Source: an uncultured Clostridia bacterium (GTDB lineage: Bacteria > Bacillota > Clostridia > TANB77 > CAG-508). From it: a DNA stretch of 64,000 bases. The stretch's first letter is position 1, and every line of letters begins with the position of its first letter. Shown here piece after piece: positions 11,704 through 62,975 of the stretch. The position numbers were made by a program, and so were the translations under genes. The notes under the pieces are model-generated. The model saw only the letters and a program-made list of their open reading frames with translations. It did not search any database and had not been told where the DNA came from. Where the stretch lies: NCBI GenBank assembly GCA_947624525.1, contig CANQKT010000001.1:26113-90112 (forward strand). Direction: 5' to 3'.

Positions 11704-11770
11704 TTTGGGGAAATTTGTATGGTGAATTGGAAAAATTTAAGGAATGTCCCCAAATTTTTCCAATTTCCTT
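11704..11770. repeat. Copy of the dispersed intergenic palindromic element (GGAAAAATTTAAGGAATGTCCCCAAATTTTTCC)
   Basis: Shares the core GGAAYGTCCC flanked by inverted AAATTT arms with four other intergenic loci (36771, 50990, 54061, 62940). Confidence 0.6.
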
Positions 11771-13499
11771 AATAGGATTTCCTCATATCTTTTAAATTAA
11801 TTTGTACACTTTCACGTCCATTAAAGCTATTAATTTCAAGATTACCTAATACATCAACCTTATCTCCTAGTAAAAAATCACTTACTAAATATCCCATATT
11901 AAATCCAATAGCATCAATAATTAAGTTTTCATCCTTTAAAGTCAACTTTAAATGTTTTCCTTCTGATAAAGCTCTAATTGAATTAATCCTCAAGTTTTTA
12001 TATATGAATATTGGCATTTTATTAGCCTCGCCAAATGGTTCTAACATATTTAATTCATTTACTATGTCTACCCCCATATCCTTAGAAGTTATCTCCTCAT
12101 CTACTTTTACAATTGGAGTTAATTCTTTTATATTTGTATTGTTTACATATTCTTCAAAATCTTTTTTAAATTCATCAAACTGACCTTTTTCAACACTAAT
12201 TCCAATAGCCATAGAGTGACCACCAAATCTACTTATATGTTCATCACATTTTGATAAAGCTTCGTGTAAATCAAACCCTGGAATGCTTCTACCTGAGCCT
12301 TTTCCTTCTTCCCCTTCAAAGCAAATTAATATGCTTGGTTTAAAATACATATCTGTGACTTTTGACGAAACAATTCCAATAACACCATGATGCCATTTCT
12401 CATCAGCTAATACTATACATGGTTTATCTTTTTCTGATTCTTCAATTTTAACTAACACTTCTTCAAATATTTTCTTTTCAATGTCTTGTCTTTGTTTATT
12501 ATATTCATTAAGTCTTCTAGATATTTGAGTTGCTTCCACTATATTATCTGTTAAAAATAACTTTAAAGCCTCTTGCTCAAATCCCATTCTTCCACAGGCA
12601 TTAATTCTTGGGGCAACTCCAAAGGATATTGTTGATGAATCTATTTTTTTATAGCCTATTGCATTTAGTAATGCTTTTAAACCTACATTTCTAGTAACCT
12701 CAACCAATTTTAATCCTAATTTTGCAATTACTCTATTCTCATCAACAAGCGGTACTATATCTGAAATTGTGCCTACACAAACTATATCTAGATATTTTAA
12801 GGATTCTTTTTCCTCTAAATTATAAACTTTGCTGATTGCCTGTATCAATTTAAAAACAACACCTACACCTGCTAATTGATTAAAGGGGTATTTATTGTCT
12901 TTCCTTTTTGCATCTACAACGGCTAAAGCCTTTGGCAAAGTCTCAGCAGGTTCATGATGGTCTGTAACAATTGTTTCTAATCCTAAACTATTAGCATATT
13001 CAATTTCCTTCAAACCTGAAATACCACAGTCTACAGTAATCATTAATTGATATTTATTATCAACTATATTTTTTATTGCCTTTTTATTTAATCCATAGCC
13101 TTCATCTAATCTATTTGGAATATAACTATCTACTTGCAAACCTCTATCTGCTAAAAATTTCTTTAATACTGTGATACTTGTTATTCCGTCAACATCATAA
13201 TCTCCATAAATAATCACTTTTTCCTGATTTTCTATTGCTTTAACAATTCTATTTACCGCAATTTCCATGTCTGGCATTAAATATGGGTCATGAAAATCTT
13301 TTCTTGTTGGATTTAGAAACACACTTATTTCTTGTTTAGTTTTTAATCCTTTATTCACTATTATTGTAGATAACAGTCTACTTAAACCAAGTTCTTCTTG
13401 AACTTTTTTTACTTCTTCATCATCTTTTTCATAAAATTCCCATTTTTTGTTCATCCTTTTTCTCCTTAAAACTACATATTTTATGATATTGTATCGCAC
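11769..13499 (-). CDS. recJ: Single-stranded-DNA-specific exonuclease RecJ
   Basis: DHH motifs (ITVDCGISG, TDHHEP) and DHHA1 region; 576 aa. Confidence 0.85.
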   Translation of the reverse strand: MRYNIIKYVVLRRKRMNKKWEFYEKDDEEVKKVQEELGLSRLLSTIIVNKGLKTKQEISVFLNPTRKDFHDPYLMPDMEIAVNRIVKAIENQEKVIIYGDYDVDGITSITVLKKFLADRGLQVDSYIPNRLDEGYGLNKKAIKNIVDNKYQLMITVDCGISGLKEIEYANSLGLETIVTDHHEPAETLPKALAVVDAKRKDNKYPFNQLAGVGVVFKLIQAISKVYNLEEKESLKYLDIVCVGTISDIVPLVDENRVIAKLGLKLVEVTRNVGLKALLNAIGYKKIDSSTISFGVAPRINACGRMGFEQEALKLFLTDNIVEATQISRRLNEYNKQRQDIEKKIFEEVLVKIEESEKDKPCIVLADEKWHHGVIGIVSSKVTDMYFKPSILICFEGEEGKGSGRSIPGFDLHEALSKCDEHISRFGGHSMAIGISVEKGQFDEFKKDFEEYVNNTNIKELTPIVKVDEEITSKDMGVDIVNELNMLEPFGEANKMPIFIYKNLRINSIRALSEGKHLKLTLKDENLIIDAIGFNMGYLVSDFLLGDKVDVLGNLEINSFNGRESVQINLKDMRKSY

Positions 13500-13556
13500 T
13501 TTTTAGTTTTTTTAAAGGGTTTTTATGAAAAAAGATGAAGTTTGCGTGGAAAGTGA

Positions 13557-13586
13557 TACAGTTCAGGAGATCCCTCCTGAACTGTA
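13557..13586 (-). terminator. Hairpin terminator downstream of the PHP-domain gene
   Basis: Perfect inverted repeat ACAGTTCAGGA-GATCCC-TCCTGAACTGT. Confidence 0.5.
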
Positions 13587-13607
13587 ACAACTCTATAATC
13601 TAATATT

Positions 13608-61257: not shown

Positions 61258-62745
61258 TTATTTCTTTTCGATATTTGTTGTTTTATCTATATTCTCCTTG
61301 CCTTCCTCTTTTTTATCCTGAATATTATCTTTATCTTTGCTTTCATCTTTGCTACTATTTGAATCTTGAATTTTATTTATATATAGTACAATTTTTGTTC
61401 GTTTTGCCACATTTGAACCTGGTTGTAAACTTTGGTATAAAACTATTCCATTTTGGTTACTACTGTCAGATTTATATTCTATAGTAACCAATAAATTATT
61501 CAATAGACTTATAGCTTCTTTTTCACTTTTTCCTATTACGTTTGGAACTTTAATATTTGTATCTTTATCTTCATTTGTCTTTTGTGAATCATCTTTTTGT
61601 CCATCATTTTTATTATTATTTGAGCTTTGAGCATTATTTGGGTTGCTATTCTGGCTGTTGTTTTGGTTACCATTCTGTCCATTGTTTTGATTATTGTTTT
61701 GGTCACTATTCTGATTATTGTTTTGAGTATTATTTGAATTATTATTTTGATTATTTTCTTGAGCATTATTTTGATTATTTGTCTCCGAATTTTGATTGTT
61801 TTCTGTCGAAGTATTCGTACCAGCATCAACTGTGTTTTCAACTTTCTCCTCTGTTTTTTCAGCGACCTTATTCTTCCATGGATTATTTGAATCTGGATCT
61901 GTTGGATCCCATCTATTTAATGGATAACCTGCATCAGCTATTTTAACTGCAGATGGCTTACCTAGTGGTCCTGGATTCGATGAAGAATAAAATTCAACTG
62001 ACGTACCTAACGGACAATTATCATATATCCATTTTGCATCTGCCACCGTTAATCGTATACATCCCAAAGAAGTAGTAATACCTAATCTATCGTAATACTT
62101 TGTTATTATTGAATCTGGAGTTTGTTTCTCATATGGAACAGAATGAAATAGAATTTGTCCTGTAATTCTTGTCGAATATTGACCATAAGAGTTCCCAATT
62201 AACAATTTCCATCTATATTTATTTTGCGTTTTATAAACCCCTGAAGTAGGTGTTGCAGCTCCTGTAGAGCAAACCATTGCTTTTACTGGAACAGTATAAT
62301 TCCCATTTTCATCCTTTTTATATGCTGTTACAGTATTTGCAGTATAATTAACCTTTAATAGATACTGATAATTGATAGCATGTTTTTTTTCTTCCTCTTC
62401 CTGCTTCTTTTTTTGTTCTTCCTCTTGCTTCTTTTCTTCCTCTTCCTTTTTTTTCCTTTCTTCCTCAGATATTTCTATAATTTCTTCTTGATCTTGTTCT
62501 TCTGCTTCTTCTAATTTTTCCTCTAATTGTGTCTCTTGTTCTTCATTATTATCTATTGAATTACTGATTTTGGAAGTATCTTCATTATTCTCTTGTTGAG
62601 CAACAAGCGCTTGAACGCTTTCTTTGTTGTAAAAATAATTATATGACACTGTTCCAATTCCTACAAGACATCCTATTGTTGCTACACATACCGCTATAAT
62701 TATAAATGCTTTTTCTATTTTCTTCTTTTTTAAACCGTCTTCCAT
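61258..62745 (-). CDS. L,D-transpeptidase paralogue with long E/K-rich and N/Q-rich low-complexity regions
   Basis: HSVPY...GCIRL catalytic domain. About 150 aa of NNQNN-type low complexity and an EEKKK-rich segment. Confidence 0.7.
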   Translation of the reverse strand: MEDGLKKKKIEKAFIIIAVCVATIGCLVGIGTVSYNYFYNKESVQALVAQQENNEDTSKISNSIDNNEEQETQLEEKLEEAEEQDQEEIIEISEEERKKKEEEEKKQEEEQKKKQEEEEKKHAINYQYLLKVNYTANTVTAYKKDENGNYTVPVKAMVCSTGAATPTSGVYKTQNKYRWKLLIGNSYGQYSTRITGQILFHSVPYEKQTPDSIITKYYDRLGITTSLGCIRLTVADAKWIYDNCPLGTSVEFYSSSNPGPLGKPSAVKIADAGYPLNRWDPTDPDSNNPWKNKVAEKTEEKVENTVDAGTNTSTENNQNSETNNQNNAQENNQNNNSNNTQNNNQNSDQNNNQNNGQNGNQNNSQNSNPNNAQSSNNNKNDGQKDDSQKTNEDKDTNIKVPNVIGKSEKEAISLLNNLLVTIEYKSDSSNQNGIVLYQSLQPGSNVAKRTKIVLYINKIQDSNSSKDESKDKDNIQDKKEEGKENIDKTTNIEKK

Positions 62746-62790
62746 ATTATTACCTCTTCACGACGTTTAATTTTTATTTTTCACATGTGT

Positions 62791-62866
62791 TGGAGCTTCC
62801 AACCGGATTTGAACCGGTGACCTCTACCTTACCAAGGTAGTGCTCTACCTCCTGAGCTATGGAAGC
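62791..62866 (-). tRNA. tRNA-Thr (anticodon GGU), CCA-encoded
   Basis: Folds as a cloverleaf by hand: acceptor GCTTCCA/TGGAAGC, D arm GCTC/GAGC, anticodon stem CTACC/GGTAG with loop TTGGTAA, T arm ACCGG/CCGGT, and 3' TCCA. Confidence 0.85.
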
Positions 62867-62939
62867 AAATTCTTTAAGCTTCTATTTTAATTTACAATAA
62901 TATTAACCAAAAGTCAATATCTCAATTAGGTATTTTGGA

Positions 62940-62975
62940 AAGTTGAGAAATTTTGGGAACATCCCAAAATTTCTT
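62940..62975. repeat. Copy of the dispersed palindromic element (GAGAAATTTTGGGAACATCCCAAAATTTCTTTC)
   Basis: Same family as the other four loci. Confidence 0.6.

Follow-up and report, generated by a model that had tools for sequence, protein, structure and literature searches.

A probable REP/REPIN-like family of stop-adjacent hairpin repeats in uncultured low-GC gut Clostridia

What are the palindromes of about 31 nt that recur between the genes of an uncultured Clostridia bacterium, and to what do they owe their place at the ends of genes? The stretch of DNA analysed here, called the window throughout, comprises 64,000 nt (positions 26,113 to 90,112 of contig CANQKT010000001.1, GenBank assembly GCA_947624525.1) and carries the palindrome at five loci. 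A first-pass annotation, made from the letters of the window, had proposed either a structural element resembling the repetitive extragenic palindromes (REPs) or the operator of a dimeric regulator with a regulon. Our data support the former proposal, through many intergenic copies, compensatory changes in the arms, a fixed polarity of doublets, a duplicated doublet and turnover in the presence and absence of copies. We consider it probable that the palindromes make up a family resembling REPs and their hairpin-forming doublets (REPINs), whose members lie past stop codons as sense-strand 3' hairpins that would stabilize or punctuate mRNA 3' ends, terminate transcription in some lineages, and spread by a hairpin-specific mechanism.

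A search of the window with the consensus GAGAAATTTAAGGAACGTCCCTAAATTTCTC, a palindrome of ~31 nt, at up to three mismatches returned six matches (the cores in Table 1, the fourth locus matching on both strands at 54060-54090), against none expected from 100 dinucleotide-preserving shuffles of the window. The 9-mer GGAACGTCC gives a further half copy at 54092-54100, and repeat detection in the window places all six copies in one family. A covariance model built from 117 copies and run over the same 64 kb recovered exactly the same five loci (E 7e-10 to 4e-6) and offered no convincing sixth; the next match in the window, at 6664-6706 (E 0.05), lies inside an open reading frame (ORF) and was rejected as a copy. 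Both scans thus confirm the five dispersed, near-perfect palindromes of the first-pass annotation, and all five loci are intergenic, as it had said. It had also named relA, the ylbF-like gene, the amidase gene and tRNA-Thr correctly as neighbours, and had placed the copies 3' of a minus-strand gene and/or in the 5' region of the next gene. The first placement holds for all five loci: each starts 8-12 nt downstream of a minus-strand stop codon, and the ORFs ending there are recJ, a GT4 glycosyltransferase, an acyl-CoA ligase, an M50/RseP-like peptidase and a sigH-like sigma factor. The second does not hold for the copy at 50993, and because this copy sits between convergent genes the feature common to the copies is the gene 3' end and not the 5' region. 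The window as a whole has 28-33% GC and a strongly negative GC skew throughout, and most of its genes lie on the minus strand.

A single element is 29-39 nt long and folds into a stem of 12-19 bp or more, closed by a 3-nt YRU loop that is CGU with transitions to CAU, UGU and UAU. The upper stem UUUAGGGA/UCCUUAAA hardly varies and includes a single conserved G·U pair. Across the copies collected the inner part TTTAAGGAAYRTCCCTAAA is identical, and two NN positions per side were left free in the scans yet proved constant. The outer arms vary by lineage with their complementarity kept. They read GAGAAATTT/AAATTTCTC in the window and in Lapin-022, and (G)TGAAATTT/AAATTTCA(C) in MGBC103331, ERR2136572 and others; in E0_LS, E0_DM, BRZ_BM and ERR4304450 the pairs TGCAATTT/AAATTGCA and TGAACTTT/AAAGTTCA occur side by side and are at times nested, and human-gut contigs carry GGGATTT/AAATCCC, GAACAATTT/AAATTGTTC and GACCAATTT/AAATTGGTC. 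GTGAAATTT is likewise a lineage-specific outer arm.

When 117 distinct copies are aligned, each of the 13 core pairs is formed in 94-100% of them, and clear double changes occur at three pairs (CG58/AU50, AU95/CG20 and UA101/AU9). The covariation score was matched by none of 500 shuffles, and the pairing collapses when the 3' partner columns are slid. Conservation ends with the stem: the 15 nt on each side of 191 distinct copies have background composition, with no conserved tag, tail or duplicated target, and the flanking columns of the alignment give no consensus. The two strands of the element are not equivalent. In 114 of the 117 copies one position is A·C in the fold of the AAGGAACGTCCCT strand and G·U (or G·T) in that of the AGGGACGTTCCTT strand, one-sided substitutions elsewhere in the stem create G·U in 37 cases and A·C in 12, and the mRNA-sense strand of window copies 1-3 folds better by 5.5-6.5 kcal/mol. 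We read this preference for G·U over A·C as the signature of a single-stranded fold and not of duplex DNA recognition. An operator recognized as duplex DNA would not give such strand asymmetry in pairing and folding, and the operator reading is disfavoured on this ground.

Where the first-pass annotation had allowed that a genome-wide search might find no further copies, or copies mostly in coding sequence, related gut Clostridia MAGs and human-gut metagenome contigs hold more than 230 copies, nearly all of them intergenic, an outcome in favour of the observation. Scanning the GTDB representative genomes with AATTTNNGGAAYRTCCNNAAATT yielded at least 112 stretches of 8 kb. About two thirds of the stretches listed come from ~12 metagenome-assembled genomes (MAGs) that stem from mouse, rabbit and other samples and carry the label uncultured Clostridia, Clostridiaceae or Clostridium; the remainder of those listed are single matches in unrelated phyla, without the features of the family. 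At up to four mismatches to the 23-nt core there are at least 127 copies in 67 loci of these ~12 Clostridia MAGs and the window, and 125 of the 127 copies listed are intergenic by our own ORF calls. A scan of metagenome contigs added 80 loci, for many of which the label is human gut, and these hold 112 further copies (110 of them intergenic by the same calls) and new arm types. Among the matches listed, the nearest relative of the window is the rabbit-gut MAG Lapin-022_bin89, with 82% nucleotide identity over one gene, and the other MAGs listed have 69-75% identity to the window. The repeat family thus appears to span several genera of one low-GC (~29% GC) gut Clostridia clade. With 0-4 mismatches to the core in the window copies, and E-lineage copies mostly identical to the consensus, the window genome seems to hold an older, decaying repeat population.

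A scan of viral contigs with the core gave six single matches, of which one passes the four-mismatch filter and differs in its central sequence; we treated these matches as chance and rejected a link to phages. A literature search with the repeat sequence found coincidental primer matches only. In the window tRNA-Thr alone passes the gathering thresholds of Rfam, and at relaxed thresholds the elements give only spurious matches to microRNA hairpins, far below the gathering scores. The family is apparently undescribed, a set of hairpin repeats like the REPs of E. coli in uncultured low-GC gut Clostridia. Separately, a degenerate scan picked up a different palindrome, AATTTATGGAATATCCATAAATT, in Cytophagales (L052, L054, L075, L082), with flanks that are shared among several genomes of Litoribacter and its relatives; this probably represents either a single orthologous site or a small family of its own.

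For copies among the matches listed we counted where they lie and how they point with respect to genes. With duplicate loci removed, 74 of 176 copies lie within 20 nt of a stop codon, whereas copies placed at random within those gaps would number 41.9 ± 4.5 there (2000 trials, maximum 57), and in gaps of at least 150 nt the count is 37 of 121 copies against 13.1 ± 3.2. Start codons show no enrichment (28 copies against 28.4 at random). Copies within 15-20 nt of a stop have their G·U strand in the sense of that gene in 71 cases against 8 (deduplicated), in 46 against 9 in the MAG set and in 29 against 0 in the metagenome set; they are thus oriented such that the mRNA of the upstream gene would carry the G·U version, which is the better folder. 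Since most genes are co-oriented with replication, and 61 of 64 informative cases lie on the majority strand, replication-coupled insertion could mimic this bias. All three copies adjoining minority-strand genes follow the gene, and 31 of 37 copies in convergent gaps follow the nearer gene. Where a gene on the lagging strand, as judged by skew, has a copy no more than 20 nt from its stop, our own count is eight gene-following copies against two, and two convergent gaps (L140 and L178) each hold two copies that face their own genes. Small as they are, these numbers favour transcription or translation as the reference frame of orientation, and replication direction as the sole cause of the bias was rejected on the few minority- and lagging-strand cases.

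Comparison of related genomes shows that copies are gained and lost between them. The recJ-relA gap in MGBC103331 and the GT4-ylbF gap in ERR4304450_bin.52 are short and carry neither element nor hairpin; as these empty sites are short operon gaps with no hairpin, targeting of pre-existing terminators was rejected for the window. Lapin-022 and the window have a copy on different sides of the amidase gene, and where BRZ_BM has one palindrome, its sister species E0_LS/E0_DM have a doublet, the flanks being ~90-95% identical (L095 against L049; L010 against L013/L084). Contig 18 of E0_LS carries two doublets of 140-147 nt, each made of a palindrome, an 80-nt spacer and an inverted palindrome, which are 90% identical throughout, lie 3.8 kb apart in opposite orientation and lose their homology exactly at the outer palindrome edges, with no visible target-site duplication around the 140-nt unit. 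In this single duplicated case, at least, an inverted doublet has been copied as a unit. Inverted neighbour pairs no more than 250 nt apart have one polarity in all 35 cases (the G·U copy, then the A·C copy; none reversed), beside eight direct pairs, and the fourth window locus is the tightest inverted pair, with the same polarity as these 35. The genes metK and ruvB and a response regulator gene are bracketed by copies on both sides.

Much of this resembles the REPs, the bacterial interspersed mosaic elements (BIMEs) built from them and the system of REPINs and REP-associated tyrosine transposases (RAYTs): imperfect palindromes of 20-40 nt, present in many copies outside genes, mostly at gene 3' ends, and with lineage-specific sequence variants. 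REPINs are inverted doublets of preferred polarity, with the doublet as the copied unit (PMC3116915; PMC3337134), and the fixed-polarity doublets and the one duplicated case found here match this. A large share of E. coli REPs lies within 15 nt of a stop codon (PMC12306157), and REPs so placed are reported to stall terminating ribosomes (Liang et al., 2015, via PMC12306157). The described REP superfamilies carry a GTAG or CGTC tetranucleotide, left unpaired, as a tag on one end of the palindrome (PMC3733652). The Clostridia family has no such terminal tag, and membership in the described superfamilies fails on this defining feature. It also differs in its low-GC Clostridia host, in its AT-rich stems, in conserving the apical stem with its G·U pair and not the foot of the hairpin, in its strong bias to the sense strand of the upstream gene (the 71 against 8 given above) and, compared with REPIN-RAYT systems, in that no RAYT gene was found near its copies in ~1.5 Mb of fetched loci. 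For the last there is a precedent in the CGTC REPs (Di Nocera et al., 2013), which are reported to have no dedicated transposase and to form head-to-head dimers (PMC3733652). Our family shares with them the small palindromic repeat, the head-to-head dimer and, as far as the fetched loci show, the lack of an associated transposase gene. CGTC REPs have an unpaired terminal tag, stems of 8-9 bp, loops of 4-5 nt and a CCA tail (PMC3733652), whereas here CGT is the 3-nt loop itself, the stems have 12-19 bp or more, and there is neither tail nor tag. Clostridia are mentioned in neither of the two REP surveys searched (PMC3733652; PMC12306157).

Two other classes of mobile palindrome invite comparison. 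The attC sites of integrons are likewise imperfect palindromes 3' of ORFs in fixed orientation, in which structure and a conserved mismatch are kept and not the sequence of the arms; the Clostridia element differs in being much shorter, in lacking the R/L box architecture and in being flanked by core housekeeping genes (recJ, relA, the Mn-dependent pyrophosphatase gene, the RseP-like peptidase gene, sigH, ruvB and metK) instead of cassettes, and the window holds no integron integrase. Miniature inverted-repeat transposable elements (MITEs) and palindrome-associated transposable elements (PATEs), such as Correia, RUP/BOX and elements derived from IS200/IS605 insertion sequences (ISs), are also short, non-autonomous intergenic repeats that are co-transcribed with their neighbours and vary in copy number between lineages. 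Unlike MITEs, the single copies here are ~31 nt long, without terminal inverted repeats and target-site duplication, and there are no solitary half-sites: a search for these as possible IS ends gave background matches only.

According to the REP/REPIN-like reading, the element would be transcribed together with the upstream cistron, whose 3' tail it would form, and fold into a hairpin that marks the 3' end. This hairpin may block 3'-to-5' exonucleases, may pause or partly terminate transcription and, lying within the footprint of the terminating ribosome, may influence how translation terminates, an effect described for the REPs of E. coli. Where a U-run follows the hairpin, as in sister lineages, it would form a true intrinsic terminator, often a bidirectional one. 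Spread would proceed via a hairpin-specific, single-strand mechanism with the enzyme supplied in trans.

A number of our own observations weigh against this reading. That the elements are transcribed, and that they have any role as RNA, we infer from sequence, and the G·U/A·C asymmetry alone cannot separate a role as RNA from one in single-stranded DNA (ssDNA) transposition, as G·T wobble stabilizes ssDNA hairpins too. At least six T in the 9 nt after the stem occur in 1 of 8 copies of the window's own lineage, and a simple terminator scan of the window flagged none of the copies. Many metagenome loci are one locus sampled repeatedly, and these counts were deduplicated by exact flank identity only. 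The collection scans required the core sequence, which makes the invariance of the core partly a matter of ascertainment, and a metagenome-contig scan with the window-type arms AGAAATTT..AAATTTCT gave 0 matches. As to the enzyme, a six-frame scan of ~1.5 Mb of fetched loci for the HUH (histidine-hydrophobic residue-histidine) motif turned up no RAYT-type ORF close to copies of the family; its sole RAYT-like ORF (L069) lies on an unrelated Syntrophaceae contig matched by chance. The one IS200-type gene seen is a C-terminal TnpA fragment of 40 residues at an E0_LS contig end (L094 7512-7633; tblastn with an IS200 TnpA query, E 2e-8). Two GC-rich hairpins downstream of it, GACGCATGCGTC and GCCCCCGG..CCGGGGG, are unlike the palindrome core, which sets the family apart from PATEs as far as one end of one element can. 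We also note an IS91-like HUH ORF (motif YHPHVHMVVTGGG) at L180 ~733, on the human-gut contig OGQQ01000653.1, ~3 kb from a doublet.

The alternative that survives best, though we rate it unlikely, is a purely selfish ssDNA element of the PATE/REP type, moved by a Y1/HUH enzyme and devoid of RNA function, for which strand-specific insertion and the purging of harmful insertions would account for orientation and proximity to stops. The near-invariant apical stem with its conserved mismatch is like that of hairpins recognized by HUH transposases, the arms need only pair, the many identical copies in E-lineage genomes point to recent bursts, one doublet was copied as a unit, doublet polarity is fixed, and the IS200-type TnpA does occur in one MAG. 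Gene and replication orientation are also largely confounded (the 61 of 64 cases above). Where the two directions disagree, however, it is the gene that is followed (3 of 3 minority-strand and 8 against 2 lagging-strand cases), the pairs in L140 and L178 each face their own gene, and stops are enriched while starts are not. Nor do the fetched loci show a transposase beside the copies, a guide-like or tag sequence or a conserved flank, and the hairpins that end the IS200 fragment bear no relation to this palindrome.

Somewhat less likely again is a more specific proposal, in which the apical stem UUUAGGGA-YRU-UCCUUAAA with its kept G·U pair would be a sequence-specific RNA signal, read on the sense strand and within the footprint of the terminating ribosome by a dedicated, clade-specific trans-acting factor; the element would spread without a RAYT or a recognizable transposase beside it. 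Such a factor might serve factor-dependent termination, 3'-end processing or protection, control of translation termination or ribosome rescue.

It is improbable, in our judgement, that the copies are ordinary Rho-independent terminators whose hairpin has been made uniform within the clade and whose sole function, in the window as elsewhere, is termination. A stable sense-strand hairpin right after the stop is what such terminators have, and sister lineages add a T-run, often with an A-run before the hairpin: in the lineage with GTGAAATTT arms, 15 of 31 copies have six or more T among the 9 nt that come next, 10 of them with the mirror A-run on the other side, and the same holds after the stem for 14 of 87 copies of the E lineage. 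Copy 5, moreover, separates the sigH-like gene from the tRNA-Thr promoter. The window copies are without a U-tract and unflagged, as said above, and copies 1 and 2 lie only 23-32 nt before the next cistron in the apparent operons recJ-relA and GT4-ylbF, at which relatives have a short gap free of hairpins. One hairpin sequence recurs across dozens of unrelated genes in several genera, and convergent evolution does not explain the duplicated 140-nt doublet. Three inverted doublets enclose a separate canonical GC-rich hairpin with T-run (L027 3130-3290, L076 3330-3520 and L031 5830-6000) and thus bracket ordinary terminators instead of replacing them. As copies of the window's lineage are mostly without a T-run and these doublets enclose separate canonical terminators, termination is a plausible use of the element in some lineages, not its general explanation, and is not established for the window.

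An operator of a dimeric DNA-binding regulator, the second proposal of the first-pass annotation, is very improbable. The near-perfect palindrome with its conserved centre, its intergenic placement and the 23-120 nt that separate some copies from the start of the next gene downstream are what one would look for in an operator. The copies are nevertheless enriched at gene 3' ends and not at starts, some lie in convergent gaps, and they are oriented strand-specifically relative to the upstream gene. The outer arms are compensatory and not conserved in sequence, with substitutions biased to G·U, and sites are not kept at orthologous positions. The density in the window also extrapolates to ~100 or more copies per genome, beside unrelated housekeeping genes.

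Uptake sequences of Neisseria and Haemophilus are often inverted pairs that double as terminators. That our element is such a species-specific DNA recognition tag, or the site of a nucleoid or segregation protein, we regard as hardly credible: a conserved ~19-nt motif in many copies per genome, inverted at gene ends and common to the clade, would suit it, whereas the element is a single hairpin with an asymmetric centre and not a pair of independent motifs, its sense-strand bias and G·U signature point to a single-stranded fold, it is unlike the parS and Noc-binding-site consensus, and sequence-specific DNA uptake is not known to have been described in Firmicutes. A SECIS (selenocysteine insertion sequence) or other recoding signal was rejected, the stops being TAA, TAG and TGA and the genes ordinary, and a CRISPR (clustered regularly interspaced short palindromic repeats) repeat, a dif/Xer site, parS and a Noc-binding site were set aside, as their architecture and consensus do not fit.

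Work on REP-type repeats has been confined almost entirely to Proteobacteria. The Clostridia family offers a clean natural experiment in which one apical hairpin is joined to different co-varying arms across genera, with decayed copies (window) and recently multiplied ones (E0_LS and related MAGs) available for comparison and with an unusually strict placement on the sense strand after the stop. It makes testable in gut Firmicutes whether such repeats are kept for shaping mRNA 3' ends and translation termination or are merely tolerated, and what copies them where no RAYT gene is present. In practice the repeats break assemblies and may be mistaken for operators or terminators in MAG annotation.

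The copies of the window are set out in Table 1, and three details of their first description change. The first copy, formerly drawn as 11704-11770, is narrower, with its 18-bp stem at the extent tabulated. The fourth locus, taken before as one-and-a-half tandem copies, consists of two overlapping inverted copies. Read on the plus strand, the core given as GGGACGTTCC stands at 54071-54079 only, and the other four loci read GGAAYRTCC.

Table 1. Repeat copies in the 64-kb window, with covariance-model scores, RNA folds and gene context (positions are those of the window)
Feature	Extent	Core	Strand	Score	Fold (kcal/mol)	Context and remarks
Copy 1	11726-11764	11730-11760	-	41.7 bits minus (E 4e-7), 16.5 bits plus	-19.2 minus, -13.7 plus	Palindrome with 18-bp stem; begins 4 nt past recJ stop (11769-11771); upstream of relA/spoT start (11697); minus (mRNA-sense) strand AUUGGAAAAAUUUGGGGACAUUCCUUAAAUUUUUCCAAU
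Copy 2	36757-36795	36761-36791	-	37.6 bits (E 4e-6)	-10.6 sense, -4.3 antisense	Between GT4 glycosyltransferase stop (36804-36806) and ylbF-like start (36737); decayed, two internal mismatches
Partial 5'-arm duplicate	36792-36803		-			Directly after TAG stop and immediately before copy 2 (read from sequence); mRNA sense GGAGAAATTTGG
Copy 3	50989-51027	50993-51023	-	40.0 bits minus, 12.3 bits plus	-12.2 minus, -5.7 plus	Convergent-gene gap; 9 nt past acyl-CoA ligase stop (51033-51035, minus); 67 nt beyond end of Mn-dependent pyrophosphatase gene (50925, plus)
Copy 4	54058-54113	54060-54090 (G·U strand plus) and 54081-54111 (G·U strand minus)	both	52.9 bits	-39.8 and -38.8 on the two strands (z = -11.4)	Two overlapping inverted copies forming one palindrome, 23-nt arms, 10-nt loop; minus-G·U part 9 nt past TGA stop of M50 peptidase gene (54121-54123); upstream of amidase gene
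Copy 5	62941-62979	62945-62975	-	40.0 bits minus, 26.9 bits plus	-15.5 and -16.6	9 nt past sigH-like stop (62985-62987); upstream of promoter-like hexamers (62925-62897) and tRNA-Thr (62791-62866); G-C pair at the otherwise G·U/A·C position

Partial duplication of the 5' arm, as beside copy 2, is frequent and recurs in other lineages (for example TGCAATTTAGG-TGCAATTTAGGGACG); partial duplicates ending in TTTAGG are seen across lineages as well as at this window site. Also frequent are runs of two or three copies of the 7-nt arm unit (TGAACTT or TGCAATT), only 5' of a copy in the G·U orientation (L009 ~5660-5733, L073 ~1440-1513 and L080 ~3830-3908).

The window holds three further repeats. The longest palindrome in it, at 25807-25875, is an inverted repeat whose 32-nt arms match perfectly around a loop of 5 nt (GATTAACACTTGAAGCTAAAGAATGTTATAAT and its complement), lies between the convergent ORFs 25382-25789 (plus) and 25870-26466 (minus) and is unrelated in sequence to the repeat family. 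At least six tandem 51-nt units (65-84% identical to the reference copy) occupy 38514-38921 within the ORF 38335-39564 (plus), which has a DUF4912 domain, and translate into a protein repeat of 17 residues. Short periodic repeats rich in GGCGTT/GGTGTT, with spacings of 12 and 18 nt, lie at 58925-58996 inside the ORF 58781-59233 (minus).

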